Assembly: GCA_005222975.1 (NCBI GenBank)
Contig: NJBI01000054.1
Coordinates: 1-21,187 of the forward strand
Source of the DNA: Promethearchaeota archaeon Loki_b31
GTDB lineage: Archaea; Asgardarchaeota; Lokiarchaeia; Sigyniarchaeales; SOKP01
DNA length: 21,187 bases
Direction of reading: 5' to 3'
Within the stretch, counting starts at the first letter, position 1; every line of letters begins with the position of its first letter. Positions 1 to 21,187 of the stretch are shown here, piece after piece. Under the pieces are notes generated by a model. It was not told the DNA's origin. It saw only the letters and a program-made list of their open reading frames with translations, and made no database searches. A program made the position numbers and the translations under genes.

Positions 1-174
1 AATGCTTGAATGGTCGTCGTTTTCCTAACGAGGAAACATTACGGGAAGAGGTCCAAGCTTGGGTACATGAACGAAATAGGGAAAAAATTGGAATAAATTG
101 GAAATTTAGCAGAAAACAAGCAGAGGTGAAATTCAAGATTAAAAGTAAACCGAATTAAGTGAATTATGTACTAG
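1..174 (+). mobile_element. Right end of an IS630-family insertion sequence (transposase C-terminus 3..158; element end at about ...TATGTAC|TAG 171-174)
   Basis: Frame 3 from the window edge reads CLNGRRFPNEETLREEVQAWVHERNREKIGINWKFSRKQAEVKFKIKSKPN*, matching the IS630 transposase C-terminal pattern (CL.RR.P..E.L..EV.AW...RN......INW.F....A..K). It is followed closely by GTACTAG, a typical IS630 end with a TA/CTAG target. Confidence 0.85.
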
Positions 175-323
175 ACTATCAAATCGAAGATATTAAAGAA
201 ATTCTTGAAGATGATTTGTTTTTAAAGTTTTTAAAATATTTAAACCGAGAAGATTATAATGCTGACCAAAAAGAGCAAATGCGTAATTTAGTAATTAACG
301 CTATGAGGAGGTTAAATTCTTGA
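171..323 (+). pseudogene. C-terminal remnant of an IS-interrupted gene, probably the Mre11/SbcD/YhaO-like nuclease partner of the downstream ATPase
   Basis: An open frame starts at the CTAG junction (LDYQIEDIKEILEDDLFLKFLKYLNREDYNADQKEQMRNLVINAMRRLNS*). Its TGA (321-323) overlaps the TTG start (320-322) of the ATPase. The nuclease identity is inferred from the usual yhaO-yhaN gene order only. Confidence 0.6.
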
Positions 324-2644: not shown

Positions 2645-2666
2645 GGGATTTAGTAATACTTATTTC

Positions 2667-2724
2667 TCGTGAAATAACCGATGATCGTGAAACGGTTCCA
2701 ATTATTTATCTATAATTCGGTTTT
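2667..2724 (+). repeat. Boundary motif copy 1, intact: TCGTGAAATAACCGA-TGATCGTGAAACGGTT...ATCTATAATTCGG
   Basis: 2667-2681 is identical to 21029-21043. 2679-2720 aligns with 3897-3944. It overlaps the palindrome TTATTTC-tcgt-GAAATAA (2660-2677). Confidence 0.65.
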
Positions 2725-2882
2725 GAGGAATTATTAAGAATAATACCCTTTGTTCAATAGAGTACAATTACTTTATAAATCCTTATTAATTTAGCCAATA
2801 AATCCAAGATACAATTCATTTTGGAAAACAAATAAGTTTAATAAAATAAAGATTTTAATACTAATCATGTCTTATAGCTATT

Positions 2883-2887
2883 GGTGA
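2883..2887 (+). promoter_or_regulatory. Archaeal Shine-Dalgarno GGTGA
   Basis: GGTGA lies 7 nt before ATG 2895. The same motif precedes ATG 5010 and, on the minus strand, ATG 17475. Confidence 0.6.
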
Positions 2888-2894
2888 TGATAAA

Positions 2895-3137
2895 ATGACC
2901 AGCATTCCAATCGAAAAGGAATTATTAGAAGAATTAGTCGATTTAAAATTAAGGTTCTTATATGATGAGATTGATAAAATTTTGAATAAATGGAAATATG
3001 AAGAATCTTCTAAGTTCCTTCAAGATGCACGCGATGGTACCATTGAAGAAGCTGAAGATGACGCAATCTCCTTACGACACCTTTTAGACCAAAGAGAAGA
3101 ATTACTAGCATTAAAGAAAGATTGGAATGAGAAATGA
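2895..3137 (+). CDS. Small acidic helical protein, probable antitoxin (TumA-like) of the DUF6516 gene
   Basis: 80 aa with a GGTGA SD, 5 nt upstream of the DUF6516-like ORF. KWKYEESSKFLQDARDGTIEEAEDD resembles the 'KYGMSSEEF...GEL.D' helical antitoxin pattern. Confidence 0.6.
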   Translation: MTSIPIEKELLEELVDLKLRFLYDEIDKILNKWKYEESSKFLQDARDGTIEEAEDDAISLRHLLDQREELLALKKDWNEK

Positions 3138-3142
3138 CTTAA

Positions 3143-3526
3143 ATGGGCTCTAAGATGTCAAGTCTCCAGAAATTGGATAAAGCAAGAATGCTCCTCCCCC
3201 AATACTTGTCAATTCATTTGATTTCGCTCAATTTTGAACCAAAATTAGCAAGAATTCACGCAATACTGAGAGATAATGTCCAGATATATATTAGATACAA
3301 TAACTATGGAGAATATAGTTACACTATAATTTTTTCTAAGACTTCATTAGATCGTTGTAGATTTGACAACTATGACGACCGTTGGGAGGTTTCAACGAGA
3401 CCACATCATTTTCATCCAAGAAAAAAGAAAGAAGCCATCCATAGCGATATGACAGGTAATCCAGAAGAAGATATACCATATTTGTGTGAATTAGTCCTTT
3501 CTAGTAAACTATATGATATTGAATAA
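3143..3526 (+). CDS. DUF6516 / TumE-like toxin-antitoxin protein
   Basis: YSY...RFDNYDDRWEVSTRPHHFH matches the DUF6516 signature (YSY...R[WY]DN......TxPHHxH). The start may be the second Met at 3155. Confidence 0.7.
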   Translation: MGSKMSSLQKLDKARMLLPQYLSIHLISLNFEPKLARIHAILRDNVQIYIRYNNYGEYSYTIIFSKTSLDRCRFDNYDDRWEVSTRPHHFHPRKKKEAIHSDMTGNPEEDIPYLCELVLSSKLYDIE

Positions 3527-3772
3527 TCCCAATACCATCAATCATTATTTAAGAGGGCCCCTGGAGTGAAGCCATCTATAAGAAGACCGTCCTTAAAAGA
3601 GTCACCAAAACTACATGTTTCAAATATTAATGGGCAGATCTCAATGGTAAAGATCTGTACAAATATTAGTTAAAATTTATATTTTAATCAAAATAAGTAA
3701 AAATTGCTAAGCATGATAATCTTGGGATAGTATCAAGATATTGCATAGTATTAATATATATATAAATATACT

Positions 3773-3944
3773 TGAAATAACCGGATTATCTAAGGAAAAA
3801 ATATCTTCATTATCATGGAAGGCAAGACTTCTTAAGATTGTTTTTCTCCTTGAAAATTCAATATATTGCATTTAGAGGATTAATTTTTAGTGAATTCGAT
3901 GAATTCGTAAAACGGTTATTGTTTAATCATCTAAACTATTTCGG
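3773..3944 (+). repeat. Boundary motif copy 2, split: left half TGAAATAACCG (3773-3783) and right half CGATGAATTCGTAAAACGGTT...ATCTAAACTATTTCGG (3897-3944)
   Basis: Both halves align with the contiguous copy at 2670-2720 and are separated by about 113 bp. Confidence 0.55.
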
Positions 3945-3976
3945 AAAATTTAATCATTATGGATAAGTTCTAAATT

Positions 3977-4138
3977 TTAGGAAATCTGCTTTATATATTC
4001 AAGATAGGTTAAACCTTTCTTTTTCGCTTTTTTTGCTATAATTTTTCTCGCAATATGAACTTGTTACATTGCGGGGTCATTCGGAAATTCTAGTTCAACT
4101 TCTCTTTTAATTTTTTCAATTTCCTTGTCATTTAACAT
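3977..4138 (-). pseudogene. Small PIN-associated protein (probable antitoxin) with an internal stop
   Basis: MLNDKEIEKIKREVELEFPNDPAM*QVHIARKIIAKKAKKKGLTYLEYIKQIS*. The in-frame TAA at 4064-4066 is probably a former CAA. It starts 15 nt after the PIN stop. Confidence 0.65.
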
Positions 4139-4153
4139 ACCTAATAACACTTT

Positions 4154-4410
4154 TTAAATTAATTCTGCAGGAGTAATAATTTCAACTTGCCTTAAATTGT
4201 TAATAGTTATGATCATTTTTATAATATCTTTAGTTTTCTTTCTTACAATGTGTCGGAAATTCCAACTCAATAAAAAATCTACCCTATTAATAATAGCAAC
4301 TGCAACATGATACGCATCTTCAGAATATGATTCCTGAATTGCATTCATTTCTAAAATATTTTTTGTAAAATCTTCAACCTCTTCAGATATGGTAAGAACT
4401 CTACGCTTAA
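4154..4410 (-). pseudogene. N-terminally truncated PIN-domain (VapC-like) ribonuclease
   Basis: The frame extends upstream of the 64-aa ORF: RVLTISEEVEDFTKNILEMNAIQESYSEDAYHVAVAIINRVDFLLSWNFRHIV...IITPAEL. 'DA.H.A.A...D.L.SWNF.HIV' is the PIN C-terminal half. The N-terminal D-T-S/N motif is missing and a stop occurs at about 4424-4426. Confidence 0.8.
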
Positions 4411-4499
4411 TTTTTACAAAAACTCATAGCAATTCAAGTAATTCAAGTCTTTTATTTTTCTGAAGATAAAGATAAAACGAGATCTCTATCAATTAATAA

Positions 4500-4796
4500 A
4501 TCATACGTTTTTGGCAACAACAAATACACACCTCATCTTATCTAATCGTGGGAGTTTTTGATATTCCAGTGAATTCAAATAGGATCGCCCGAACAGATGA
4601 CAGTACCAAGGAATATGCTGTAATAAGTGAAAATGATGATTTAAGTAGTAATACAATATTATTAATAGATGATATCATTACTGATGGAGAGACTAAAGAT
4701 AAAATCTGACTTAAGTTAGGCGAAAAGGGCTGCATTAATGTAGACATGATAACTCTGGCAAGAACAGACCATAATATTTATGAGTATAATGAATAA
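4500..4796 (+). pseudogene. Type I phosphoribosyltransferase (ComF-like) fragment with an internal stop
   Basis: ...NTILLIDDIITDGETKDKI*LKLGEKGCINVDMITLART...* contains the PRPP-binding loop hhhhDDhhTxGxT and a C-terminal 'TLART'. There is an in-frame TGA at 4707-4709 and no N-terminus. Confidence 0.75.
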
Positions 4797-5009
4797 ATTC
4801 ATTCTTTATTTTAAATATTTATAAATAACAGATCTGTATGCTGAATTTAATTTTGTCGGTAGTATCTTAAATTCCATTACATATTTTACCGCTAATAGCA
4901 AATAATTAATAAATCTTTAACTTAATATTTTCATGGATGATATATATTGAGGAAATAGTAAATTAATTAATGAAAAAATATTGACAAGAAGAAACTCAAG
5001 GTGATTTAA

Positions 5010-6410
5010 ATGATGGAATTAGATCTTGAAGTAAAGATAAGCCAATTAAAAAAAATATTTTCAAATTCAACACCCTCAAAAAAGTTATATGCTATTACTG
5101 ATGAGCAAAAACCTTATGTAAGGAAATTAAATGTTCTTTTTGGGGGATTCCATGAATATTTAAAAAATGAGATTAATTTGACAAAAAAAGCAAGTGACGC
5201 AATAATAGAAGATATTGAAACGTTTCTCCAAATTTTTCATCTAGATTATAGTGATAAATGGTTATCTGAACTCGATAAGGAGGAGGTAGATTACTATTTA
5301 CAAGGCTTTTTACCACGGAAATGGTTAGGTTTCTCTAAAAGTGATTTGAAAAGCATGTGTAAGAGCTTAAAAGTATTTCTTGATTTTTTGAGAGAAAAAC
5401 TAGACTACTTTCCTAATGAGATACGCTATAGGAAAATGATGGATGCCCTTAATGCCAATGATATTATAGATACGATTGATTGGGGTGATGACGAAGATGA
5501 AGATGATATGGAAAATCCAAATACTTTTATCAAAAGTAATAGATTGCAATTTGAAGGGTATGATAATGGCAATTTAATATATTCACTTGAAGGGGATGAC
5601 GACATACCTCGAGATATCTTGGAAGCAAACTTCATGAAATGGTTAAAAACCATTCAGAATGTTAGAGAAAGTGATAAAATGTCAGAAATTGAATTTAAGA
5701 AAGACCACCTTAAAAAATCAATAACATTAGAGAAGGATTTGATGCCATGGTATTCCATTGACGAGATAAATGTCGGCAAAATGATTTTAAATAATGTTTA
5801 TAAAAATTTTCATAAACTCAAGACCATCAATGAACGCGGATTAGTGGCTGCTATAGATTGCGCCTTGAACGAGATACTCTCAAAAAAGGCGATCCAGAAG
5901 GAAATTGCCAAGCGCCACGACACATCTCCAGCTACTCTAATCAATAATCGCTATATAATTGCCCCTTGCATCCCCTTGGAATATTTTTACCCTCTTTTTA
6001 TTTCAGAGAGCGATCTCAACTCAGATAAGGAAAAAACATATATTTTTAAAATTAGTAATTATTACAACGGGCGAGATTGGTCTAAATTTGAATTATTAGA
6101 ATCCAACACCTTAGATGACCTCCATGATGTGATTCAACACTTTATGGAAGGAGGAGAATATGATGAAGGGCATTTATATTCTTTTTTCATGAACGGGAAG
6201 GAATGGGATGCAGAATATGCGGGACCTGAAGAATTTCAACGAGGACGCGCTTCCAAGTTCACGAACATCGCACTAAAAGAAACTAATCTCGGGTACAAGC
6301 AAAGGTTTCTATACTTGTACGATTATGGCGATCAAATCAAATACCAAGTGACAATCGTTGGATTGGGTGTATGGAATGAAAGTAAGACATATCCTCATCG
6401 TATAAGATAA
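5010..6410 (+). CDS. Multidomain protein: recombinase core-binding (SAM-like)-type N-terminal domain, acidic linker, TFIIB/DUF6398-like HTH, C-terminal pRiA4b ORF-3 (TnpR-like) domain
   Basis: C-terminal TLDDLHDVIQ...HLYSF...FLYLYDYGD is the pRiA4b ORF-3 signature. QKEIAKRHDTSPATLINN is HTH-like. The N-terminus FHEYLK...DIETFL...VDYYLQGFLPRK...KSLKVFLDFL follows a core-binding-like helical pattern. Confidence 0.75.
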   Translation: MMELDLEVKISQLKKIFSNSTPSKKLYAITDEQKPYVRKLNVLFGGFHEYLKNEINLTKKASDAIIEDIETFLQIFHLDYSDKWLSELDKEEVDYYLQGFLPRKWLGFSKSDLKSMCKSLKVFLDFLREKLDYFPNEIRYRKMMDALNANDIIDTIDWGDDEDEDDMENPNTFIKSNRLQFEGYDNGNLIYSLEGDDDIPRDILEANFMKWLKTIQNVRESDKMSEIEFKKDHLKKSITLEKDLMPWYSIDEINVGKMILNNVYKNFHKLKTINERGLVAAIDCALNEILSKKAIQKEIAKRHDTSPATLINNRYIIAPCIPLEYFYPLFISESDLNSDKEKTYIFKISNYYNGRDWSKFELLESNTLDDLHDVIQHFMEGGEYDEGHLYSFFMNGKEWDAEYAGPEEFQRGRASKFTNIALKETNLGYKQRFLYLYDYGDQIKYQVTIVGLGVWNESKTYPHRIR

Positions 6411-6529
6411 TTAAATATTTTTTTACATTTATGAAATAAATAGGTGTTAAGCTTTAAAGTCCGGGAATGATATGATTTCACAATAAACATGTTCATTCAT
6501 TTTTCAGGAAAGAACTCGAAAAAAATAAT

Positions 6530-8191
6530 GTGCGTACCATGAATTATACTGAATTAAAAAGAATGTTAGAAAAAAGAAGTAAAGACGATTTGCTCAAGAT
6601 TTTAAATAACCTAGTCCAATCAAATCCATCCCTGGTCTCCACGATTGAATTTTATCTCTCTAATACGGAGCAAGATGATAGAATAGATTTAGAACCAATC
6701 AAGAAAAAGATTTTGAGTGCCGTTTATGGTGATTTAGATTATTACCATATTGATGGAGCATTAGAGAAATTATACAAAGTGCAAAAAATTGCTGAGTCCC
6801 TTTCCAAAGCTTCTAAATTCAAATCTGCGGCAGAGATTTACTTTCTTCTCGTGGAGGGATGCGTGGATGCGTATGACGAAGGTGCCGATGACTCCTCAGG
6901 AGGAATGGGTTTTTTAGGAGAAGAATGCATCTTAGACTTTAATAAATGCATGAAAGAAGTTAAAGATGAGGGGTTTAAGGCTGATTTTATCGAGTGTGTA
7001 CTCGAACTGTATTGGAGAGAAGATTACGGTTTTAACGTGGAAGTCATGCTTGAAGGCACGGTAACTCAAGCTAATATTCATATGCTCGAAAAAGAATTTG
7101 AAGATTACTTGAAAATACCCAAGAATGATCATCATTTTGGTTATAGACGAAGTACTATTCGGAGATTGATGATAAAATTGTACAATTTAATTGAAATGCC
7201 CGAAAAATCCCTACAGACCGCTTTAAAAGGGTTGGCGACAGCCGATGATTATCGAATAGCTGCTGAGACTCTCATGGAATTAGAGAGACATAAAGAAGCG
7301 TTAGGACACGTCCTAAACGGATTGAAATTGAATGAATCTCACGGGCTCTTTGAGGTATATTTTATTATAATAGATTCGCTCACTTCCACCAAGAAAGGTG
7401 AGATGATTGATATTAACGAGATGATTACATGGGCAATCAAATTCATTTCCTCCTTCTCAAATTGGAGTTATAATGTGAAAAAATATAGAAAAATATGCGG
7501 TCTTTTTTCAAAACTTAATTCAAAAGAACTGTTTAAAGAAAAATTGTTTAATACATTAGAGGGCGAGATTTTAGTAAGAGTCCTCTTAGAAGAGGGTGAA
7601 ATTCTTAATGCTGTTGAGACTCTAAAGAAGTATGATCTCAAGGGAAGATTACCAAGCCTCGCATTATCAATAGCTCACAAAGCAAAAAAAAAGGAGTTTA
7701 TAGACATTGCTCGAAAAATGATAATTCTTGCGATAAAGAGTGGATTAAGATATATTGATGGAAAAGATGAGAGAGTTATTCGTGAGACTTTAGATAAACA
7801 TTCTATTGAAGAAATAGCTGAATCAATTCCAGATAACATAAATAAGAAAATTTCTCTATTACTCGCTGAAATCATATCAGTTGAAGCACCTCATATTATA
7901 AAGGAAGTGATTAAAGCCCCTGAAAATTATGGAGGCAAAGAGCTTCTTACTATTTGTAATAATCTCGTAAAAAAACGTCCACAAGACGCCTTCCACCTTT
8001 GCGAAGGATGGATTTTAAAATTCGTGGTACGGTCACATGTTTATTATGATGATGTTATCAGAATGCTGCGAATTATAAAACGCGCCCTAAGTCAAGAAGA
8101 AGAATGGGAAAAGTATCTCCTAAAATTTATGTCAAATTACAAATCTCGGAAGAAATTGATAAAAATGATCCAAGAGGCCAATTTATCATGA
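6530..8191 (+). CDS. All-helical protein resembling the C-terminal part of SWIM-finger/DUF6880-type proteins, without a SWIM domain
   Basis: Begins L...SKDDLLKIL..L...NP, has the ADDSSGGMG motif, and ends Y..VIRML...W..YL..F...YKSRKKL. The likely start is ATG 6539. Confidence 0.55.
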   Translation: MRTMNYTELKRMLEKRSKDDLLKILNNLVQSNPSLVSTIEFYLSNTEQDDRIDLEPIKKKILSAVYGDLDYYHIDGALEKLYKVQKIAESLSKASKFKSAAEIYFLLVEGCVDAYDEGADDSSGGMGFLGEECILDFNKCMKEVKDEGFKADFIECVLELYWREDYGFNVEVMLEGTVTQANIHMLEKEFEDYLKIPKNDHHFGYRRSTIRRLMIKLYNLIEMPEKSLQTALKGLATADDYRIAAETLMELERHKEALGHVLNGLKLNESHGLFEVYFIIIDSLTSTKKGEMIDINEMITWAIKFISSFSNWSYNVKKYRKICGLFSKLNSKELFKEKLFNTLEGEILVRVLLEEGEILNAVETLKKYDLKGRLPSLALSIAHKAKKKEFIDIARKMIILAIKSGLRYIDGKDERVIRETLDKHSIEEIAESIPDNINKKISLLLAEIISVEAPHIIKEVIKAPENYGGKELLTICNNLVKKRPQDAFHLCEGWILKFVVRSHVYYDDVIRMLRIIKRALSQEEEWEKYLLKFMSNYKSRKKLIKMIQEANLS

Positions 8192-8331
8192 AATTTAATG
8201 AGATTAATAACTGAAATCATTTTTTCCTTCCCTTCCTTATTTGATTTTTTAATTTTCCTTATTTAAAATTCTTTTACATGAAGTAAAAGTTCATTTTAAG
8301 AGTGTTTGTTAATGTAAGCAATTCTGATGTT

Positions 8332-10896
8332 TTAATTTCTTTCTTTTTCTAAATATTTAATAAAAAGTTCTTTTTTAGTCAATAACTTGTTCAGTTTGCT
8401 AAAAGTACCATCTTGAAAAAGACCGTATTCATGATATAATACACTAATTAAAGATTTAAGGCTTCGACTCATCTCAGCCATCGAAGTTTTTGTTGTAATA
8501 ATTTCATTTTTAAGTACATAATGACTTAAAAATTCTGAAATTGTATCTATAGTTATTAAGTCTTCAACCTCGTTGTTATCATTAATCTCATATTCATTTA
8601 TTAAAAAAGTGAAAAATAATTCGGCATCTTGAACTTTTATACTAATTGTCTTTTGTTTTAATCCTTTTTCTTCTAAATAGTATTCAAGATCACTAATGAG
8701 GCAATCAATATATGAAAATACATCATAAGCACCCATTAATTTATCATCCTCTATTTTTCCAAACTCGTAGAAAGCAAGGCACCATTTATTAGGCTTTATG
8801 GGACATTGATTCGGGCATTCTCTACATTCCAAAAATAAGGTTAACGCTGTCCCTATTAATATATTTGATACCTCTTGTTTAGAAATAAAGAAGTATAATA
8901 AATGAAGCTCGGGGTTATTAACGATTTTTTTATGAGTTAAAATTAATTCTGTATCAATTTCTGTTTGCGCTCTATTTTTCCCCATTGAAATTGTTTGGAA
9001 AATTGCATCTGTAGTAATTTTAGCGATTTCGAAACATAGTTGAACAAAATCTTCTGTAGCAATTAAAGGTGTAAAAGTAAAATATATTTGATAAAAATTT
9101 AGCAAGAGCCTTTGCATTAGCTCGAATGTAAACCAATTCCTTAAGATATGATCTGACCTATTAGGAAAGAAATGCAAAGGGTTTCTAACAATAACATTAA
9201 GCCTTTCCTTATTATCCTTCGTTAGGCCATCAGGATTCTTATCCATTACTTCTATAGCTTTTGAAATATATTGTTCACCTTGCATTCTCAATTCGTTAAA
9301 TTGTTTTCTCGTCATTCCAATGTATTTTAAAGAATCTCTGGGTTTAATTCTTTCATTAACCCAATATCGGGATAAAAAATTTGCTAAACGCATAGGATTT
9401 AATTGCCCTGCAAGTTTAAGTGCATTTTTATATGGTCCTAACAATTGATACGAATTTATGGCTAACTGAAGCAGATAATTGAAATCAAAAGGACTAAAGC
9501 GCATTAGTTGGCATGTGATAATTGTTGAACTATAGAAATAACCCCCAATTTCAAGAATGTATGAAAGATCCATGTATGCTTCAATTTTAAAAGGATCGAG
9601 TTCTATACATCTTGAAATATCTCTAAAGGCAGTATAGAATTGTCCTTGTGCTTCTCGCATCTTAGCTCTAAGATAAATAGGAATCGCATTTTCAGGAAAC
9701 TTTTTTATTAATTTATTAATTAATACCAATGCTTTTTTATATTGACCGTCATAATATAACTCTTGGGCTTTATGCATTATTTTTTTTTCTTCAACTTTTG
9801 AAAAATAGTCAGTAAAATCGCCATAATTAGATTTTATAAACTTATTCTTTTCATCCAAAGACCAATATACATCATCTAAGAAAGAACAATGCTTTTTTAT
9901 ATCCATCTTTATATCTTTAGGAAACTTGAAAAGATGACCTGTATCGATGTTAGTAAAGGGTATAGTTTTATCAAAGGGCTTAATTTTGTTAATTAAGCTT
10001 TTGACATCAATAAATTCTTTTATATCTTCGAGAATTTCCTCATTCTTCTTTACTTCATCTAAACTCGGAATTATCCCCATCTTAATAAAATTTTCTTTAA
10101 TAGTTTCGGGGTCTACCTCTAACTCTTCAATTAATTCCTCATAAGATTTTTTTAAGGTATACCCTGAAAAGAAAAAAGTCTGATATAAAAGGATTAACCT
10201 ATAGAAATATGAATTATGTTTTGTCTGCTTGCGTAAAATACTAATGACCCTTGAAGGAAGAGAATTAAACTTTACTAAATCAACAATAAAAGTAAAAAGT
10301 TTCATAAAAACCTCATTATCTTCCATTAATTTGAAAAGATCTAAAATTACGCTACCAATTATCGACTCTTTTTGTTGACCAAAATATTCAAAAATCTCAT
10401 GTTCTCTATGTTCTTCGATATATTCACCATAATTAAGAGAAAAATGAAGAATCTTGTTCTTTATTGTAAGAAGTTGCTCTTTATGAACTCTCTTTTTGTC
10501 AGAAACCTTCTCCTGTTTCTTATTTAGCACAGCTTTTAATTCAGATTTATTATAAAGAGTTCTAAATATGGTTTGGCTTTCCTTTTTTTTTATCACATCT
10601 TGAAGTGTAAGGTAATTTAAAAATTTCTTAATAATTGTTTGTGTTTTTACCACTTTATTTGTAGAAAATTCGGGAAAATTCTTAGGAAGTATCTCTGATA
10701 AATATTTATTTATAAATTCTGAATTTAGACTGTTTAGATTCAGAAATTTCTTGGTTCTCTTAAGCTCTTCCAAAAATAAAGAAATATTCCTTTCAATGAA
10801 TTCCAGATCAGTTTTCGAGTATTCTGACCTATCTAAGCTATCAATGAAATCAATTTCATGTGATTTAAATTGTTCATTTGAACTTTGTTCCTTCAT
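8332..10896 (-). CDS. TPR protein with N- and C-terminal core-binding-like domains and a 4-Cys domain
   Basis: TPRs (AQELYYDGQYKKAL...FP; A...ISRCIELDPFKIEAY), CRECPNQCPIKPNKWC at 8779-8826, and a C-terminal EYYLEEKGLKQKTI...DAELFFTFL...ISEFL...RSLKSL region. Confidence 0.7.
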   Translation of the reverse strand: MKEQSSNEQFKSHEIDFIDSLDRSEYSKTDLEFIERNISLFLEELKRTKKFLNLNSLNSEFINKYLSEILPKNFPEFSTNKVVKTQTIIKKFLNYLTLQDVIKKKESQTIFRTLYNKSELKAVLNKKQEKVSDKKRVHKEQLLTIKNKILHFSLNYGEYIEEHREHEIFEYFGQQKESIIGSVILDLFKLMEDNEVFMKLFTFIVDLVKFNSLPSRVISILRKQTKHNSYFYRLILLYQTFFFSGYTLKKSYEELIEELEVDPETIKENFIKMGIIPSLDEVKKNEEILEDIKEFIDVKSLINKIKPFDKTIPFTNIDTGHLFKFPKDIKMDIKKHCSFLDDVYWSLDEKNKFIKSNYGDFTDYFSKVEEKKIMHKAQELYYDGQYKKALVLINKLIKKFPENAIPIYLRAKMREAQGQFYTAFRDISRCIELDPFKIEAYMDLSYILEIGGYFYSSTIITCQLMRFSPFDFNYLLQLAINSYQLLGPYKNALKLAGQLNPMRLANFLSRYWVNERIKPRDSLKYIGMTRKQFNELRMQGEQYISKAIEVMDKNPDGLTKDNKERLNVIVRNPLHFFPNRSDHILRNWFTFELMQRLLLNFYQIYFTFTPLIATEDFVQLCFEIAKITTDAIFQTISMGKNRAQTEIDTELILTHKKIVNNPELHLLYFFISKQEVSNILIGTALTLFLECRECPNQCPIKPNKWCLAFYEFGKIEDDKLMGAYDVFSYIDCLISDLEYYLEEKGLKQKTISIKVQDAELFFTFLINEYEINDNNEVEDLITIDTISEFLSHYVLKNEIITTKTSMAEMSRSLKSLISVLYHEYGLFQDGTFSKLNKLLTKKELFIKYLEKERN

Positions 10897-10970
10897 AGAT
10901 ATACTAAAAATTACTATAAATTAAGAAATACTTATTGAATCATTAATAGCATATAATATCAGTAGAAATA

Positions 10971-11483
10971 TTAAGATGTATTTTTTTTCGACAAATGTTT
11001 TCCATAAATCTCTTCAATTAATTGTAAATCCCATTCTGAAGGTTTTTCCTTTAACTTTTGAATTAAAAATTCCCAATCCTCATCGGATTTACATGCTTCG
11101 AAAAAAAGTTCCATCAATCCATCATCAAAACCCGAATTATGTTTTTGATATTCAAATATCGCGTCATCAATAAAATATTGGCGAGCTTCAGACGAGAGAG
11201 AACCCGTTTTTAATAGCTGAGATATTTCTTCTAACCATTCATAAGCTTCTTCTTCCTTTTCTTCTGGACCACCACCCAATTCGTTGAATTCGTATATAAT
11301 TTCTGCCGCATTTGACCAATATTCTTGTATTAACTCCTCATTTACCTTTTCGGTATCTCCTAACCAAATGTAGGTTAATTTCTTGCAATCTCGGGATTTT
11401 CTTATGAGTTCAGAAATTAATTCTTGAAGTTGTGGTTTTTCAAGTGCTTTAATCTTATCTTCTAAGGATCTATGATTTTCCAT
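10971..11483 (-). CDS. Acidic helical hypothetical protein (EFNELGGGPE / NSGFDD motifs), possibly C-terminally shortened
   Basis: 170-aa ORF co-oriented between two paralogous genes. Its N-terminus (I.ALEKPQLQELISELI) resembles that of the 553-aa protein. Confidence 0.55.
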   Translation of the reverse strand: MENHRSLEDKIKALEKPQLQELISELIRKSRDCKKLTYIWLGDTEKVNEELIQEYWSNAAEIIYEFNELGGGPEEKEEEAYEWLEEISQLLKTGSLSSEARQYFIDDAIFEYQKHNSGFDDGLMELFFEACKSDEDWEFLIQKLKEKPSEWDLQLIEEIYGKHLSKKNTS

Positions 11484-11525
11484 AGTTTTTTCATCATCTA
11501 CAATTATGATTTTTTCGATTGTCTT

Positions 11526-13376: not shown

Positions 13377-13821
13377 TATTAGCTCTGTACTAAATTAAAA
13401 ATCGTTTGATATTCCATTAATAATTAATAATTAATAATTGTAAGATAATAGATTTAGTTTTTTTAGCTATCAATGAAGACAAAATTAAAAATTATTTTTC
13501 GTCTGGGACTACGGGAAATATTGAATTAGATGTAATTTTAGCTGTTGTAAATCAAATAGAGAAGAATAAAGAAATAATTTGCTTATCTGAATTCTCAATT
13601 CTAGAATTAGTTTGCTCATTAAAAAGATTGAATAGCTCTCATAAAACTGCACATATATTATCTAAAATCTATCAAATTTCTGATGTTTTGCCTTTAAGAT
13701 ACTTAATGATAAAAAGACAGTATAAAATTTTCATAGTTATTACTTTAAGATATTTTTTTGAAGATCATAGTCTTTTCGGTCTAATATCGAGATATTTAAA
13801 GAAATGTTCTACAAATAAAAG

Positions 13822-13851
13822 AATAACTGATTTCTAAACACCTCAGTTATT
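13822..13851. repeat. Perfect 9-bp inverted repeat AATAACTGA-N12-TCAGTTATT, a variant of the AATAACCGA boundary motif
   Basis: Read directly. It lies in the intergenic region between the five-gene cluster and the TIGR04255 operon. Confidence 0.5.
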
Positions 13852-13931
13852 ATTTAACAAGTCTTATATTTTTGATGGAAAATATATAATATATTACATT
13901 ATTTAAAAAATAAAAAAGTTCAATTTAAATT

Positions 13932-13945
13932 GAAAAATTTATATA
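13932..13945 (+). promoter_or_regulatory. Putative BRE/TATA promoter of the TIGR04255 operon
   Basis: GAAAAA-TTTATATA about 43 nt upstream of ATG 13988. The AT-rich background limits certainty. Confidence 0.4.
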
Positions 13946-13987
13946 ATTAGAATAGTATGTTTTCTAACGAGAACCAACCCATATATA

Positions 13988-14722
13988 ATGATTGATTATA
14001 AGGAAATTTTTGATTATCCCCTATTATCAGAGGTAATAATAGACTTAAGATTTACTACTAAATTAGGAATGGCTAAATTTATGCCAGATTTCCAAGAAAA
14101 AATAGAAGAATTTTTTCCTAAATTACGAATACTTAATGTTCGAACAATGAAAATTTCTAGTAACCAAGATTCAGAGATAACGCAAGATAAATATTGGGAG
14201 TTTAGCAATCCTGAGGAGCAAACAGTTTGTAAAATATACAACAATAAATTTTCTTTAATATCTAATAAATACAAATCTTGGACGAAATATAAAGAAATTT
14301 TAGGATTTAAAGATATTATTAACTTGATTTTACCAGAATTTCTTAATATAGTTTCAATTAAAGAATTTGAGCGAATTGGATTAAGATTTATAAATAAAAT
14401 TGAACTTGAAAAAAACACCTCCAATTGGTTTAGTAATCTATTTATTCCTCTTTTTAACTTAAACAGATATTCAATTGAAAATCTAAATGAGAACTATGTT
14501 CGTTTCATTGTGCAAAAAGAGATGGAAACACAACTAATAACTCAAGCTGTATTTATTATTGAAGATAATAAGAAAAATTATATTCTAGATTTTGACGCAT
14601 ATTTAAGAAATATTGGAAGCACTGAAGCTAATGATAAGATTGATTTCTTACATGAAGTTATTCTAAAAGAATTTCATTCGTTGATTACAGATGAGTGTAG
14701 AAATCGAATGAGAGGTAAATAA
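13988..14722 (+). CDS. TIGR04255 family protein
   Basis: N-terminal PLLSEVIIDLRF, central Y..W..Y...ERIGLRFINKI, and C-terminal YILDFDAY...LH....EF..LIT are the characteristic TIGR04255 motifs. Confidence 0.85.
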   Translation: MIDYKEIFDYPLLSEVIIDLRFTTKLGMAKFMPDFQEKIEEFFPKLRILNVRTMKISSNQDSEITQDKYWEFSNPEEQTVCKIYNNKFSLISNKYKSWTKYKEILGFKDIINLILPEFLNIVSIKEFERIGLRFINKIELEKNTSNWFSNLFIPLFNLNRYSIENLNENYVRFIVQKEMETQLITQAVFIIEDNKKNYILDFDAYLRNIGSTEANDKIDFLHEVILKEFHSLITDECRNRMRGK

Positions 14723-14727
14723 AAATA

Positions 14728-15528
14728 ATGGTTCTAGAATTAGATAGATTAGTTGATGAAAAAACAAAAAAATATGAAGGCTTATTAGCGAAAGAAACTG
14801 AACCGGAACATTTTGCTTTTGTAAATGAAATAGATCAATATATACTAAATCTTTATGAAAGAGAGAAAGATAATCCTCATCCTAAAGTATATTTTAACAT
14901 CAATTTACCGATAGAATTAAAATCAGTGAAATCTCTTATTGGATATGAACACGGGGGATCTTCTAGTGGTTGGCCTTATAGCATTCACGAATTTCAATCC
15001 GAAATTCAAAATCTTCAGAAAAAAATTGAAAGAATAGAAAAATTAACAAAGAGTGAATCCCAATCTTTTATAAATATCTGTTTAGAGGATATAAGAAGAG
15101 CATTCGTACACATTTTAAGAAAAACTAAAAAATTAAGAATCAAGGATTATCTTTCTGTAGATTTTTTGAGAGAAATTGAATCTTCCAAAGATATTTTGGA
15201 ATATGAGGATAACTGGGATGGAGAAGGAAGTAAAAAATATAAAAAGGAAACATGGATTAAATTGAATCAGTTTATAATTAATGTTTCGAAAGAATTTTAT
15301 TTAAAATATAAAAAGCAAATAAAAACACCTTACATCAATCCAGGAATGGACGGTGCAATTGATCTTCATTGGAAAACAGAAAAATTTGAATTATTTTTAA
15401 GTTTCCCTGAAAGAGATGATGCTCCTATAACTTATTATGGAGATAATTATAGGGATAATATAATCAAAGGAACTTTGAAAACCGACAATTTCGGAGTATT
15501 AATATCATGGATCAAGACATTCCATTAA
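14728..15528 (+). CDS. Hypothetical protein with a C-terminal 'NWDGEGS...P.I.P..DG.I.L.W' domain, putative antitoxin
   Basis: Middle gene of a tight operon (5 nt gap upstream, 22 nt overlap downstream). The WDG motif is one I recognise from genes next to TIGR04255. Confidence 0.6.
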   Translation: MVLELDRLVDEKTKKYEGLLAKETEPEHFAFVNEIDQYILNLYEREKDNPHPKVYFNINLPIELKSVKSLIGYEHGGSSSGWPYSIHEFQSEIQNLQKKIERIEKLTKSESQSFINICLEDIRRAFVHILRKTKKLRIKDYLSVDFLREIESSKDILEYEDNWDGEGSKKYKKETWIKLNQFIINVSKEFYLKYKKQIKTPYINPGMDGAIDLHWKTEKFELFLSFPERDDAPITYYGDNYRDNIIKGTLKTDNFGVLISWIKTFH

Positions 15529-15974
15529 CAAATTGGCCAAAAGAAGATATACCTAATTTTGATCCTTATAGTAACGATTATCTACTATATCGTCATATCC
15601 ATAAAACATATATAAAAAAAACGAATCCTGAGATAATATCTCCAAGTGCTTTTAAAGATCCTCAAGGCGCAGGTATATCGACTGATTGGGGTAAATATTC
15701 TAGTCCTCAAGAGACTCAAAAACGTTCAGAGAAAAATCCACCAGAAGATTATGGAGTCGTTAGTTTAAAAGTAAGAGAGATTAGAGAAAAAGAAGAATTA
15801 AACAAATTAACAATTGAACATGCTCCTAAACAAAAAACAATAAATTATGAAGGAAATCAAGCATACACTAATATAAATGGACTCTTAAAATATGGGCTAC
15901 TAATAAGAGAAACTCAAGTTCTTCTTTCAAGGCTCGCAAAATGGGAAATTAATGAAAGAATGGGCTTAAAATAG
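15507..15974 (+). CDS. Putative ADP-ribosyltransferase/RES-like fold toxin
   Basis: LYR...SAFKD....ISTDW...YGVVSLKVREIR...IEHAP...NQAYTNI shows an R, S and (H to Y) motif order typical of small ART/RES-like proteins. Confidence 0.55.
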   Translation: MDQDIPLTNWPKEDIPNFDPYSNDYLLYRHIHKTYIKKTNPEIISPSAFKDPQGAGISTDWGKYSSPQETQKRSEKNPPEDYGVVSLKVREIREKEELNKLTIEHAPKQKTINYEGNQAYTNINGLLKYGLLIRETQVLLSRLAKWEINERMGLK

Positions 15975-15990
15975 TTATAATTCATATTTT

Positions 15991-17475
15991 TTATTTTATT
16001 GTTTTTGTATTTTCGTGAAGCCATTTTTTGAAAGCTTTTGTAGGAGTATCGGCATATATCCAACGCTTTCCTGTATCTTTTTTAAATCGTTCGATATCTC
16101 CTTTAGTACAATTGTATCTTCTCTTAAATCTTTTTAGACTGTACCACTTTTTAAAAGTGTTAGTAGCTATACCGCTCCAAATTGCCTGTTTTCTTGTCTC
16201 TTTTTGAAATTGATCGATATCTTTGCTAGTTAAAATATATAAATTGTCGAAAACAAGCTCAGGAACACCCTCTAAAGGACAATTTATTAAATAAAGTTCT
16301 TTAAGAGCTGGTAATTTTAGTATAGAATCGGGTACGATTTTAATTTTATTATTCGATAAATCAAGAATTCTTAAATTCTTGAGCGTTAGCAACCCTTTAA
16401 TTTCGGAAATCTCATTATTTGAAAGATTTAATATTTCCAAATTACGCTGTTTTTCAAGACCTTTAATTTCTCGGATATTATTATAAGAAAGATCTAAATC
16501 ATATAAATCAACAAGTCTCTCTAACCCTTCTATTTTAGTTATTTCTTTAATATTCATTTCATTTAAACAAAGAAAACCATCTACATCAATTATCGTAGAT
16601 TCATAAACAATGAATTCTATAAGCGCTTCTTTAAGTATTTCTCTTAAAGAAATTAACAAATCTATAAACAACCTGTGTGGATGTTTTTTATGTCTGTGGA
16701 TTATTTGAAAAAAAGTAGCATTTAAGAAAATCCTCTTTATACTTTCTGAAAGCTCGCGAATAATCTGAGAAACAAACGAATTGCCGTATCTATCCTTACA
16801 AATATCTATTAGTTCCTTAGTTGCTATTTCTATTTTTTTATTTATTTCAAATTTCAAATTATAATCAAACGCCTCGTCAATGAAATATTGAACTTTATCT
16901 TGTATTTGATATCTTACGACCTCATTGTTAATCAAAAAGGCGGGGTATTCGAGGACCGTCTTGATTACATTAAAGTCCAAATCCTCTGCCAAGGATTCGA
17001 TCTCGTCTTGACTTAAATAATCTAAATATCCTTCTTCTAATAAATAGGTAAATATAGGTTCATAACCACACGTAAGTCTTTTGGCTATTTCTTCCTTGAA
17101 TGCTTTTTTTGCTTGAGGGTCTCCTAGTTCGTATAATTCTTTCAATAAGGGAAACGCAAGGTTGCTGTGGAGCAAGCGTGTATCGTAAAAATTCTCAGCC
17201 CAAGCTTGTAAATTAGAACAATGACCCCAAAATTCTGCTTCAATAGATATTTGTGGCTCATCTCCTTCTAAAGAATGATCCAATAATTCTGCAGCTTCAT
17301 CTATAGAATTAATCTCGTCAAACTCGTGTATTTGGTTAATAGGAATATTCATCAATAAGTACTTACATTGAGAGAACTTTTCATTGTTTACATAGATGTT
17401 TACTTTGTTATTTTCTTGCTTAACCGTTATGAATTTGTTGATTTTAAATTCATTTTTTTCTATTTCTAATTTCAT
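15991..17475 (-). CDS. Lokiarchaeia-type leucine-rich repeat protein
   Basis: N-terminal domain FKINKFIT...IYVN...F.QCKYL...SIDEAAE.LD...EFWGHCSNLQAWAEN.YDTRLLHSNLAFPLL, SDS22-like LRRs (LDLSYNNIREIKGLE; LNLSNNEISEIKGL; LDLSNNKI), and two C-terminal 30-aa repeats. Confidence 0.9.
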   Translation of the reverse strand: MKLEIEKNEFKINKFITVKQENNKVNIYVNNEKFSQCKYLLMNIPINQIHEFDEINSIDEAAELLDHSLEGDEPQISIEAEFWGHCSNLQAWAENFYDTRLLHSNLAFPLLKELYELGDPQAKKAFKEEIAKRLTCGYEPIFTYLLEEGYLDYLSQDEIESLAEDLDFNVIKTVLEYPAFLINNEVVRYQIQDKVQYFIDEAFDYNLKFEINKKIEIATKELIDICKDRYGNSFVSQIIRELSESIKRIFLNATFFQIIHRHKKHPHRLFIDLLISLREILKEALIEFIVYESTIIDVDGFLCLNEMNIKEITKIEGLERLVDLYDLDLSYNNIREIKGLEKQRNLEILNLSNNEISEIKGLLTLKNLRILDLSNNKIKIVPDSILKLPALKELYLINCPLEGVPELVFDNLYILTSKDIDQFQKETRKQAIWSGIATNTFKKWYSLKRFKRRYNCTKGDIERFKKDTGKRWIYADTPTKAFKKWLHENTKTIK

Positions 17476-17621
17476 TATTTACATCACCTAAAAGAATCGT
17501 CTTTGGGGTAATCTTAACATAAATTTGGAATCTCATCTAAATTTTTGATTCTGTAAATATTGTAATGATGCTTAATTTATATTTCCCCTCTTACCGCCCT
17601 TAAGCATTATTCCCCAACCAA

Positions 17622-17650
17622 GTCCCCATACATAGGGGACAAGATTTATA
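17622..17650 (+). promoter_or_regulatory. Palindromic operator GTCCCC-N7-GGGGAC directly upstream of a TTTATA box
   Basis: Perfect GC-rich inverted repeat at 17622-17640. TTTATA at 17645-17650 lies 24 nt before ATG 17675, consistent with a leaderless transcript. Confidence 0.55.
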
Positions 17651-17674
17651 TTATTAGAAAATCATCTATTTAAT

Positions 17675-19966
17675 ATGGGTACTGAAAAAAAAGAAAAGGA
17701 AAAAAATTTCAGCAATATTGTAATAGAAAAAGATTTCTCTTCCAGGGAAAAAATCCTATTCGCTCTATACGAATTTGGAAGAATTAAACGAAAAGATTTT
17801 ATTGACATAGAAAAACGACTTCCTTTTTATGTAACAAAAAATACTTTCGATAGACATATAAGAAAATTAATTGAAAAACAATTAGTAATAAGAAAATATG
17901 AGGGTCCAGTTCACATCTACTCCATCACAGATTTAGGAATAATGACATTAAAAAGAAGATTAGAGAAATTAAACCTTGATACTTACATAATGGATATGGA
18001 AAAAAAGAGATTAATCGATTTAATTGAGGAGAAATCTGAGTTCATAAAAAAATATATTTTTGATGATGATAATATTTTAAAATTCTTAGAGTTGGTCAAT
18101 ACTATTAAATCAAATAATTCAAAATTAAGCGATTTAAAGCCAAAATTAGACTTTTTGATTTTATATCTCGCAGTAAATCACCCACAATTATATCCAAGAT
18201 ATTCAGTCTCAGAAGAGGATTTTATAAAAAAATATAATATCAAGAAATGGGAGCTAGAGTATTTTTTAGAAAAGGTCATTGAAGAAGATATTTACCATCT
18301 CTATTTTTTCAAAATCTCTGTTAAAGAAAAGGGCATAAATTTATTCTTTATGAAAAATAGTCAGTATGGAATTATATTTGAATCCACCATAAATTCACAT
18401 ATAAAGAAGTTTATTTATTTAGATTTATTAGAAAAAATTCAATACAATCTTGAAAGTCATAGACAGGTTTATAAGCAGATAGTTTCTTCCTTAATAGAGG
18501 GATATAATTTATTTCATGAAGATCTCCGCGATGCTCTTTACCATATACTTATAAAAATCGAAAGAAAAACTATGCTTGATTTAATAGAAAAAAAAAACCT
18601 CTCTCAAATATCTTTTAGCAAACATTTTCCTATTTATCTAAAATTACTTGTAAAATTATATAGATTCGAAGAACGCAAAAAAAAAGAATATGATATTGTA
18701 TCAATATCTGGAGATGATTTCTTTAAGAACTATATTTTTTTGAAGATAGAAAACGATAATCCTAAACTTAATTCTGTATTTAAAGAGATTGATAAACTGA
18801 GAATAAACAGGAATTTTGCTGAAGCAATAGAAAAACTCGAGAAAATCATTGAAAAATACCCAAATACTTATGCTTTTAATCAATATATAGAGATTTTATG
18901 CTTGATGAAAGATGATAATGCGACATTGGAAAAAGTAGAAAAAGCAATTGATTTAAATCTACATCCATCTCTTTTCCATTTTTACAAAGCTGAAATATTA
19001 CTCAATACGAGAAAATATCAAAAAGCTTTAGAAGCTATCGAAGCAGCAATATGTAAAAACCCTAATGTCCTTTATTTTTATGTCATAAAGGTATTAATTC
19101 TGATATCTTTAAATTCTATAGATGAGGCTAAAGATTCTATAGGAAAAGTGTATGAAAATGATGAATTCAAACTAGAAAAACAGAACGATGTTTTTGGGTA
19201 TGCTTGGCTCCGTTTTATAGAAAATTATTTTCCTCCAGAATCAAAAAAAAATGAAAAAAATTCCCAAATGCTTATCTTAATAAATTATCTAATTGAAATT
19301 GCTCCAGAAGATTATAAATTATATGACCAAAAAATTAGCATTCTACAATTTTGGAAACCTATTATATATGAAGAATTATTTAAAGATATTGACATCCGAA
19401 TAGATCTCAAAGAAGATGTTTTTTATCGCAATTTAAAAGCATCATTCCTGAAAAAAAAGAAGCAGTATGATGAAGCTTTAGAAACCATCGATTCCGCAAT
19501 TGAAATTAAACCAAATAAGAGCTATTTATACCATACAAAATCGAAAATACTATTTAAACTCGAACAATTTGATGAAGCCTTAGTCGAAATCGATAAAGCA
19601 ATTCTCAATGACTCTGAAAATAGAGATTATTACAGGTTCAAAACCTTAATTTACTTGAAAATGAACGATTATAAAAATGCCTTAAAATCTATTGATAAAA
19701 CAATTGAACAAGAACCTGATGTATACTATATTGGTGTTGAAGAGGAAGGAGCAGAAATACCTATGGTTCTTTATGATGATGAATTTGGTGAAGAAGTACT
19801 TGATGAAAGTACTTTGGATGATTATCTTATTAAGGCTGATATCTTGCTAAGACTAGAACGGAAAGAGGAAGCTCTTAAAGTTCTTGAAAAAGTGAGAAAA
19901 ATTGCTGAAAATCAAAATACCCTTGACTATGCGAAAAAAGTAGAAAATAAAATTAAAAATCTCTAA
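17675..19966 (+). CDS. Winged-helix + TPR protein, putative transcription regulator
   Basis: N-terminal REKILFALYE...VTKNTFDRHIRKLIEKQLV......YSITDLG is a wHTH. The C-terminal half has multiple TPRs (YQKALEAIEAAI..NP; YDEALETIDSAIEIKP; FDEALVEIDKAI; YKNALKSIDKTIEQEP). Confidence 0.8.
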   Translation: MGTEKKEKEKNFSNIVIEKDFSSREKILFALYEFGRIKRKDFIDIEKRLPFYVTKNTFDRHIRKLIEKQLVIRKYEGPVHIYSITDLGIMTLKRRLEKLNLDTYIMDMEKKRLIDLIEEKSEFIKKYIFDDDNILKFLELVNTIKSNNSKLSDLKPKLDFLILYLAVNHPQLYPRYSVSEEDFIKKYNIKKWELEYFLEKVIEEDIYHLYFFKISVKEKGINLFFMKNSQYGIIFESTINSHIKKFIYLDLLEKIQYNLESHRQVYKQIVSSLIEGYNLFHEDLRDALYHILIKIERKTMLDLIEKKNLSQISFSKHFPIYLKLLVKLYRFEERKKKEYDIVSISGDDFFKNYIFLKIENDNPKLNSVFKEIDKLRINRNFAEAIEKLEKIIEKYPNTYAFNQYIEILCLMKDDNATLEKVEKAIDLNLHPSLFHFYKAEILLNTRKYQKALEAIEAAICKNPNVLYFYVIKVLILISLNSIDEAKDSIGKVYENDEFKLEKQNDVFGYAWLRFIENYFPPESKKNEKNSQMLILINYLIEIAPEDYKLYDQKISILQFWKPIIYEELFKDIDIRIDLKEDVFYRNLKASFLKKKKQYDEALETIDSAIEIKPNKSYLYHTKSKILFKLEQFDEALVEIDKAILNDSENRDYYRFKTLIYLKMNDYKNALKSIDKTIEQEPDVYYIGVEEEGAEIPMVLYDDEFGEEVLDESTLDDYLIKADILLRLERKEEALKVLEKVRKIAENQNTLDYAKKVENKIKNL

Positions 19967-20069
19967 AAATCAAGAGTGTTCAGTTCCCGATTATTTTTTA
20001 GAGAGAGTATATATTGAAAGTTAAAATAATAGTATACATTGAAAGATAAATAACTTAAGAGAGATTAAT

Positions 20070-21026
20070 ATGAATAATCAGGAATTCAAGCAGTACCTAA
20101 TCAATATTCATGGAGAGTATGTGATTAATAATATATTGGAGAAAGATAAGCTTGAGTATGTTAAATCTAAAGATTTATGGAAATTTATCATGCAATACTC
20201 TCGTAAAACTGATATCAGTAATTTTTGTCTAAAAGACCGTGTAATGAATAAATTGTGTCCAATCTCTAAGAACCCTAAAAATCAAGTTTCGACAGATCCG
20301 AACAAAAGAGTAATAGAACTTCAAAACTGGGCGGGAGTGTTGGATCTGGAATCAAATGATGGCGCGATAAGGGATATTATGGTACTAGGGGAGAGTCCAA
20401 TTCATGATGTAGGTCAATATCTTAAGGAACAGTATAAACAACTATCAAATCCCATATTAGAACAGATATCAGAGGATATCGTAATTAATCCAAGTTGGGG
20501 TTTGAATCTAGGTTTTAGATCTTGGAAGGAATTACAGAATGAGATGGATAGATTAGAATCTAATGAGAAAACTACCACAGGGTGTGCATTTTGGATATAC
20601 TTGGGGAGACTTTTTAACAAAAATTGGAAATACATAGTAAAAAACATTTATGCAACAGATCTTGCTCACTGTAACGCTAATAAATTTCCTGATACCTTAA
20701 AAAATTGTGCTAAACTTCATTTTAAGGAAGAATTATTAACAATTAAGCCGAAAATACTTATAATTTTGGGTCATACAGCTGGAACAACTCTCATGAATCT
20801 AGAAATAGATCTTGGATTTCATATCGAAGAGCCAGAAGTATCTCTACAGACAGATTATCCATTTTATAAGTATAAATATCCACAGGCGGGTACGCTTCAG
20901 ATCGAGAATTATAGGACAAAATTTTTAGTCATTCCTCACCCTAGTCCCACGGAAACTACTTATAAAATGAATTTTGATTTTTGGAAACAGCTTAGTTCAT
21001 GGTTTTATGAATTTTATTCACCATAA
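20070..21026 (+). CDS. Uracil-DNA glycosylase superfamily protein (divergent)
   Basis: Motif 1 IMVLGESP, IYATDLAHC, C...HFKEEL..IKPKILIILG, and motif 2 IPHPSP. Confidence 0.85.
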   Translation: MNNQEFKQYLINIHGEYVINNILEKDKLEYVKSKDLWKFIMQYSRKTDISNFCLKDRVMNKLCPISKNPKNQVSTDPNKRVIELQNWAGVLDLESNDGAIRDIMVLGESPIHDVGQYLKEQYKQLSNPILEQISEDIVINPSWGLNLGFRSWKELQNEMDRLESNEKTTTGCAFWIYLGRLFNKNWKYIVKNIYATDLAHCNANKFPDTLKNCAKLHFKEELLTIKPKILIILGHTAGTTLMNLEIDLGFHIEEPEVSLQTDYPFYKYKYPQAGTLQIENYRTKFLVIPHPSPTETTYKMNFDFWKQLSSWFYEFYSP

Positions 21027-21028
21027 TT

Positions 21029-21046
21029 TCGTGAAATAACCGAAGA
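21029..21046 (+). repeat. Boundary motif copy 3: TCGTGAAATAACCGAAGA
   Basis: 17/18 identical to 2667-2684 and begins 2 nt after the UDG stop codon. Confidence 0.65.
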
Positions 21047-21187
21047 CCAAATAAAAGAATAATAAAAGTTTAAAAAGAAGAAATCTATGAATTAATCTTT
21101 GTCGGTTGGATAAATACTAATTAATATATAAGGAAAGATATAAAATGTTCTTCAAAATTTAAAGATATTTTTTATATGTATTTCTAT

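Follow-up and report, generated by a model that had tools for sequence, protein, structure and literature searches.

Accessory modules that move by means of short recombination sites have been described in Acinetobacter, where dif (pdif) modules and chromosomal dif-module islands carry XerC/XerD sites with a 6-bp central region (PMC13141974, PMC6449649, PMC12907356). Arrays at dif are also formed by integrative mobile elements exploiting Xer (IMEX), such as the CTX, TLC and VGJ phages of Vibrio cholerae and the gonococcal genetic island, which have no integrase and use the Xer enzymes of the host. Here we analyzed a stretch of 21,187 nucleotides from Promethearchaeota archaeon Loki_b31 (hereafter the window), which is the entire contig NJBI01000054.1 (C24) of an assembly (G000) of 3.5 Mb and 31.5% G+C, and in which a short motif recurs at the junctions of unrelated gene modules. 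Genome comparisons showed that, at the level of sequence, this motif behaves as a site at which one Lokiarchaeia-type Asgard family exchanges toxin-antitoxin (TA) and other accessory modules. We consider it probable (about 70%) that the motif is a half recombination site of a cassette array, with a full site (the hub), exchange of modules and, most likely, XerA as the enzyme. Such a system would appear to work most like the Acinetobacter dif modules and the IMEX arrays at dif. Genomes, contigs, fetched loci and genera are referred to by labels beginning with G, C, L and g, respectively, and the controls for the exact and 1-mismatch 14-mer are counts of its reversed sequence.

In the window, the 15-mer TCGTGAAATAACCGA is found exactly at 2667-2681, 22 nt past the stop codon of open reading frame (ORF) 320-2644, and a second time at 21029-21043, 2 nt past the stop codon of ORF 20070-21026, and TGAAATAACCG is present again at 3773; these positions and distances agree with those given in an initial annotation of this DNA. 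Judged inside the window alone, the repeat is unremarkable: about seven other exact 15-16-mer repeats occur there, and a 15-mer repeat with six or more G/C is present in 59% of the genome's 21-kb windows. What makes the case is the comparison with relatives. Comparison with background, a check that the initial annotation had proposed, gave 63 matches to the exact 14-mer TCGTGAAATAACCG versus 3 in the control, distributed over 22 of 68 family genomes; among 233 genomes from elsewhere in the phylum, 6 contained it, which is the background level. When one mismatch was allowed, about 70 matches versus 11 were found in 41 related genomes, in co-oriented clusters, and with up to two mismatches there were 129 sites versus 6 in 550 kb fetched around the matches. 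Conservation is confined to the 14 nt, the flanks being unique and without information.

It had also been suggested that a single 18.4-kb island is integrated here, with the two exact copies as attL and attR, and the repeat could be due to chance. Two identical direct repeats 18.4 kb apart with accessory content between them would fit such a view, as would their lack of significance inside the window alone. However, the site is used family-wide and in dozens of genomes the 14-mer flanks modules that are unrelated to one another, the interval itself contains additional sites (2685, 3770 and 3905), the window has neither an integrase nor a tRNA gene, and the enrichment over the reversed control rules out chance. 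A single island or a chance repeat is therefore very improbable.

The site just described, termed A, is composed of an 8-bp arm, TCGTGAAA, and a 6-bp core, TAACCG, instead of the 11-bp arm and CCGAWG core that had been proposed initially. A second form, B (TCGTGAAACGGTTA), has the same arm followed by the reverse complement of the core. It emerged unprompted by k-mer enrichment on loci picked for A alone (19 loci versus 0.08 expected), and 57 B sites were counted versus 5 in the control. Seven loci have an A and a B site that overlap, one on each strand, and together form the 22-bp palindrome TCGTGAAA-TAACCG-TTTCACGA, the hub, whose 8-6-8 organization with an asymmetric core has the arms around a 6-bp central region that are typical of Xer/dif sites. 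The Xer/dif-type likeness that had been noticed in the window is thus supported, in the form of a half-site of arm plus 6-bp core. A dif-style 11-N-11 palindrome built on the arm proposed initially, TCGTGAAATAA, gave nothing convincing in G000. Of the other copies listed initially, the weaker ones at 4823 and 13822 differ from the 14-nt core at 5 and 6 positions, no better than expected by chance, a possibility that the initial annotation had allowed for. Two of the inverted partners (CGGTT at 2693, CGGTTATT at 3913) turned out to lie within the B sites at 2685 and 3905, and those at 4856, 13843, 19988 and 21102 were discarded, having no TCGTGAAA arm.

Sites lie on the plus strand to the left of the hub and on the minus strand to its right in 24 of 25 cases. 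On contigs without a hub all sites are on one strand, with a 2-mismatch match in L038 as the single exception. The sites are intergenic, and the upstream ORF is co-oriented with the site 58 times and opposed to it 48 times; this independence of neighboring genes argues for a role at the level of DNA and against one at the level of transcripts. In genus g12, junctions have the form B-124 nt-A with constant length in 14 cases (L034:5548-5698, L047:584-734, L029:5167-5319 and 11 others). The 124-nt segment varies in sequence, assorts independently of both neighbors and has no Rfam match. Folded as single strands, these 150-bp B-to-A junctions were no more stable than shuffled sequences (z from -1.3 to +0.1). 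When the 14 junctions were folded as an alignment, only a 6-bp terminal stem was obtained, with no hairpin and no covariation.

The behavior of homology around the sites provides the strongest indication of recombination. Among A-site pairs with a common flank, 19 share one flank only and one shares both; the corresponding numbers for B-site pairs are 10 and 0. Homology is one-sided in 29 of the 30 homologous site pairs and breaks at the motif, which is where the initial annotation had suggested looking for breakpoints in relatives. Moreover, a Na/Ca-exchanger cassette can be aligned from exactly A to exactly B (L047 720-1980 and L035 5498-6780). Between genus g12 (G048) and genus g1 (G019 and G116), its identity amounts to 93-95%, versus 75-80% for the xerA locus of the same genomes, implying that modules move between genera. 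The cargo consists mostly of TA pairs, recurrent ones being DUF433 with DUF5615/PIN, MNT with HepT, VapB with PIN (VapBC), RHH/UPF0175, DUF2283 and TumE. Other cargo includes a Na/Ca exchanger, aldehyde dehydrogenase, radical SAM and GIY-YIG proteins, AAA ATPases, and LRR and TPR proteins, and this repertoire is typical of cassettes. These data support the proposal that the motif marks the junctions of a co-oriented array of unrelated, mostly TA, modules, and that it is a recombination site other than attC, because homology is one-sided at the motif and cassettes are bounded by it. The cassette reading of the initial annotation was largely right.

A reasonable model would be as follows. The full site would be the hub with its asymmetric core, of which A keeps the left arm and the core, and B the same arm with the reversed core. 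Modules of 0.1 to ~17 kb, lying between successive half-sites, are exchanged at these by site-specific recombination, a step that genome comparison shows. Judging from the polarity of the sites, a newly acquired module most likely arrives as a circle with a half-site, which recombines with the hub; the hub would be regenerated while older modules are displaced outwards, so that the half-sites on both sides point at it. XerA would most likely cut at the borders of the 6-bp core. By the same polarity, the window would be part of the left arm of an array whose hub lies beyond the right end of the contig. The sites on contig C95 of the same genome are on the minus strand, and C95 may represent the other arm of the array, with the hub possibly located between C24 and C95.

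This system resembles the Acinetobacter dif modules in several respects: it has discrete accessory modules including TA pairs, short Xer-type flanking sites and a core of alternating orientation, and modules shuffle between replicons while carrying no recombinase gene of their own, the Xer recombinase being encoded by the host. Unlike in Acinetobacter, the sites are one-armed (8-bp arm plus core), the polarity of the arm is constant and the core alone flips; furthermore, two-sided chromosomal arrays converge on one palindrome in an archaeal host with a single XerA, which would presumably provide the catalysis. With IMEX, whose attP has one defective arm and whose integration regenerates a functional site and leaves hybrids behind, the system shares the tandem arrays beside a full site. 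It differs from IMEX in that the hub, which need not be dif, is set apart by a core of its own, TAACCG, from about 4-12 look-alike palindromes, in that the cargo consists of small gene modules rather than phage genomes, and in that growth proceeds in both directions. Co-oriented arrays of unrelated, often TA, cassettes with a recurring recombination site, as well as cassettes common to distant hosts, are also features of integrons and CALINs (clusters of attC sites lacking integrases), including archaeal integrons (PMC9668308). However, IntI and the attC hairpin are absent here, junctions measure 14 bp in the genus of the window, and gene orientation inside modules is mixed. Assignment to integrons was rejected, as co-oriented sites do separate cassettes but neither the integrase gene nor attC (a folding imperfect palindrome of 57-141 bp) was found. 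Repetitive extragenic palindrome (REP) elements with the Y1 transposase RAYT were rejected as well: the half-sites are not palindromic, and a Y1 gene (PF01797) was not found in G000, G015, G199 or G299.

In the literature on Asgard integrons and cassettes, Lokiarchaeia mobile elements and Asgard XerA, we found no description of such a system. If it is real, the archaea most closely related to eukaryotes would possess a means of exchanging cassettes whose parts are unlike those of integrons. It would explain how TA, defence-like and metabolic genes can pass from one genus to another at 93-95% identity with no element-encoded enzyme, and also why assemblies of family genomes break at sites: several contigs start or end at a site or within ~40 nt of one (e.g., G110:C105:1-14, and both ends of G110:C102). 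In addition, it offers a concrete 22-bp substrate for testing archaeal XerA or an unknown recombinase.

To which enzyme the sites belong was approached by elimination. Neither a PF00589 domain nor an integrase was detected among the proteins of the window, in agreement with the initial suggestion that the recombinase is encoded elsewhere. The single tyrosine recombinase of G000, on contig C63, belongs to the XerA equivalog NF040815 (241 bits, cut-off 220), and its nearest solved structure is 4a8e; with the integron integrase model TIGR02249 it scored 100.7 bits, under the cut-off of 265. G015, which is 100% complete, has at least six sites, yet only one XerA-like gene. Y1 transposase and serine recombinase families are lacking in most array-bearing genomes searched, and G015, G199 and G299 have neither. 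No integrase was found on any fetched array contig, and no recombinase family recurs among the 600 ORFs of 70 array loci. Purified Pyrococcus XerA cuts at the edges of its 6-nt spacer and transfers strands on substrates that consist of a single arm and the spacer (PMC3646895); one-armed sites are thus plausible XerA substrates. XerA is the likeliest candidate for the recombinase.

The same cassette system could instead be served by a dedicated recombinase, such as an integrase encoded elsewhere, one carried on incoming circles or a member of an unrecognised family, in which case XerA would only share the arm sequence, or not even that. Some relatives do have extra tyrosine recombinases (four in G017 and two each in G008 and G011), and about 4-12 look-alike palindromes per genome are unlike a single dif. 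On the other hand, both G000 and the complete G015 carry arrays with one XerA-like gene only, no such enzyme is encoded on the fetched array contigs, no large protein family recurs across the 70 loci, and G015, G199 and G299 are devoid of the Y1 and serine families. We regard a dedicated enzyme as unlikely and favor XerA.

The arms are not restricted to the arrays. Every genome searched in g1 (41) and in g12 (54) contains 3-12 other exact palindromes with the same arms, and the control gave one site in one of 161 genomes. In G000, exact arm palindromes were found four times with a spacer of 6 and never with a spacer of 5, 7 or 8. Each of these look-alike palindromes has its own core, and TCATCG, CCATCC and GAACAG are conserved and single-copy across genera. 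Those of G000 are intergenic, have unique G/C-rich cores and lie mostly between convergent genes; several adjoin small TA-like gene pairs. Among the palindromes of G000 none had the TCATCG core, half-sites with TCATCG or GAACAG cores were not found near those palindromes, and G000 has no half-sites for any other core. Archaeal dif has been described as a single 11-6-11 site (PMC2958812), so the look-alike palindromes cannot all be dif. The conserved single-copy palindrome TCGTGAAATCATCGTTTCACGA was compared between L096 (G005:C14) and L097 (G017:C78): its left flank is conserved (genes of 382 and ~248 amino acids) and its right flank differs between genomes. In G223, a homolog of the TA pair of the window is located directly beside this palindrome.

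Full palindromes with variable cores between convergent genes are reminiscent of terminators or REP-like elements, and a variable spacer is typical of sites for dimeric proteins. It is conceivable that arm and core bind a regulator, roadblock or terminator-type protein, or form an RNA hairpin, and that modules are shuffled by other processes that break nearby. Such a role appears improbable. Half-sites lack the second arm, and yet their 6-bp core is invariant in each of its two orientations, a constraint not required by a protein that binds regardless of the spacer; breakpoints fall at the site in 29 of the 30 pairs, and cassette ends match sites to the base. Polarity follows the position relative to the hub and not gene direction, and B-to-A junctions have no hairpin potential. 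Furthermore, the sites in G000 with up to one mismatch number five in C24, two in C95 and three elsewhere, and 2-mismatch matches across the genome equal the control count. Because these sites are few and confined to few places, the motif is not a genome-wide promoter-proximal site, the distribution that the initial annotation had named as pointing to a transcription factor.

Coming back to the half-site explanation, a more specific form of it can be offered tentatively, with somewhat less than even odds. Housekeeping XerA itself might run gene capture, one-armed circles with a private core integrating at the matching hub to give two-armed arrays, and the other ~4-12 palindromes might be landing pads that are kept separate by core incompatibility. 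Several observations weigh against the recombination reading as a whole. No recombinase is tied to the site, XerA being a candidate by elimination only. The presence of the arms in other palindromes means that the arm-binding protein has a role beyond the array, and this protein could be a non-recombinase. Several conserved single-copy palindromes are candidates for the chromosomal dif of the family. The TAACCG hub is absent from the G000 assembly, 17 kb of the window holds no internal site, and in two cassette comparisons homology stops at the stop codon of the gene, short of the next site. As to the data themselves, ORFs of the relatives come from a crude ORF caller, and the metagenome-assembled genomes break at sites.

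The coordinates of sites, units and look-alike palindromes are listed in table 1. The sites of the window follow the order A-B-A-B-A, A and B alternating and every site being on the plus strand. They bound four units, namely an ATPase module, a TumE TA module, a 121-bp unit and a 17.1-kb block, and these are all that real sites divide off of the five modules recognized initially.

Table 1. Half-sites and units of the window and look-alike palindromes of the same genome (G000).
Feature	Position	Strand	Remark
Module upstream of first site, SMC/Rad50-like AAA_23 ATPase (320-2644)	1-2666	+	
A half-site, exact (arm TCGTGAAA + core TAACCG)	2667-2680	+	Intergenic
B half-site, 1 mismatch, TCGTGAAACGGTTc (same arm + inverted core)	2685-2698	+	
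TA module: 80-aa partner (2895-3137) and TumE-family toxin (3143-3526)	2699-3769	+	
A half-site, 2 mismatches, acTTGAAATAACCG	3770-3783	+	Paired B site 135 nt downstream
121-bp unit between A and B site	3784-3904	.	No accepted gene
B half-site, 1 mismatch, TCGTaAAACGGTTA	3905-3918	+	
17.1-kb block	3919-21028	.	No recognisable internal site
A half-site, exact	21029-21042	+	Contig end 145 nt beyond
Exact palindrome TCGTGAAA-N6-TTTCACGA	C14:27413		
Exact palindrome, same form	C33:1851		
Exact palindrome, same form	C35:57866		
Exact palindrome, same form	C97:14752		
1-mismatch palindrome TCGTGAAA-N6-TTTCACGA	C34:47229		
1-mismatch palindrome, same form	C56:11438		
1-mismatch palindrome, same form	C90:31174		
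1-mismatch palindrome, same form	C94:1673		

Homologs of the TA pair of the window were found in other cassette loci; that of the toxin gene in G017:C51 shows 97% identity, with homology reaching only to the stop codon. Comparison of the 121-bp unit with the 124-nt units of genus g12 revealed no similarity. The genes of the 17.1-kb block encode a decayed PIN-like protein, PRiA4_ORF3, TPR, SprT-like, LRR, TPR and UDG-like proteins, and four more have no Pfam match at E ≤ 0.01. Degenerate sites within 3919-21028 occur at chance level only. The UDG-like gene at 20070-21026 (318 amino acids, UDG superfamily) has no homolog at E ≤ 1e-20 in 120 family genomes, and synteny through it could not be compared for this reason. 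Neither Rfam matches nor tRNA genes were detected in the window or in the largest arrays.

Some minor features of the window were also noticed. The decayed PIN-like gene (3990-4400, minus strand) has DNA matches of 72-73% in G017:C79, G001:C187 and G000:C27, and its ORF fragment groups with a PIN-domain protein from a cassette. At 13812-13851, where ORF 13628-13837 ends, AATAACTGA and TCAGTTATT make up an inverted repeat of 9 bp around a 12-nt loop, which looks like a terminator-type hairpin rather than a recombination site. The exact 15-mer CAAATAAAAGAATAA is present at 13812-13826 and at 21048-21062, the latter 4 nt past the A site at 21029; this A/T-rich repeat may be due to chance. In addition, the sequence with which the contig opens (~200 nt) has copies of 96-99% identity in four other contigs of the genome (C6:1-195, C3:29529-29712, C67:46419-46592 and C39:16081-16208), and window positions 1-200 are a dispersed repeat that is also located at a contig start.

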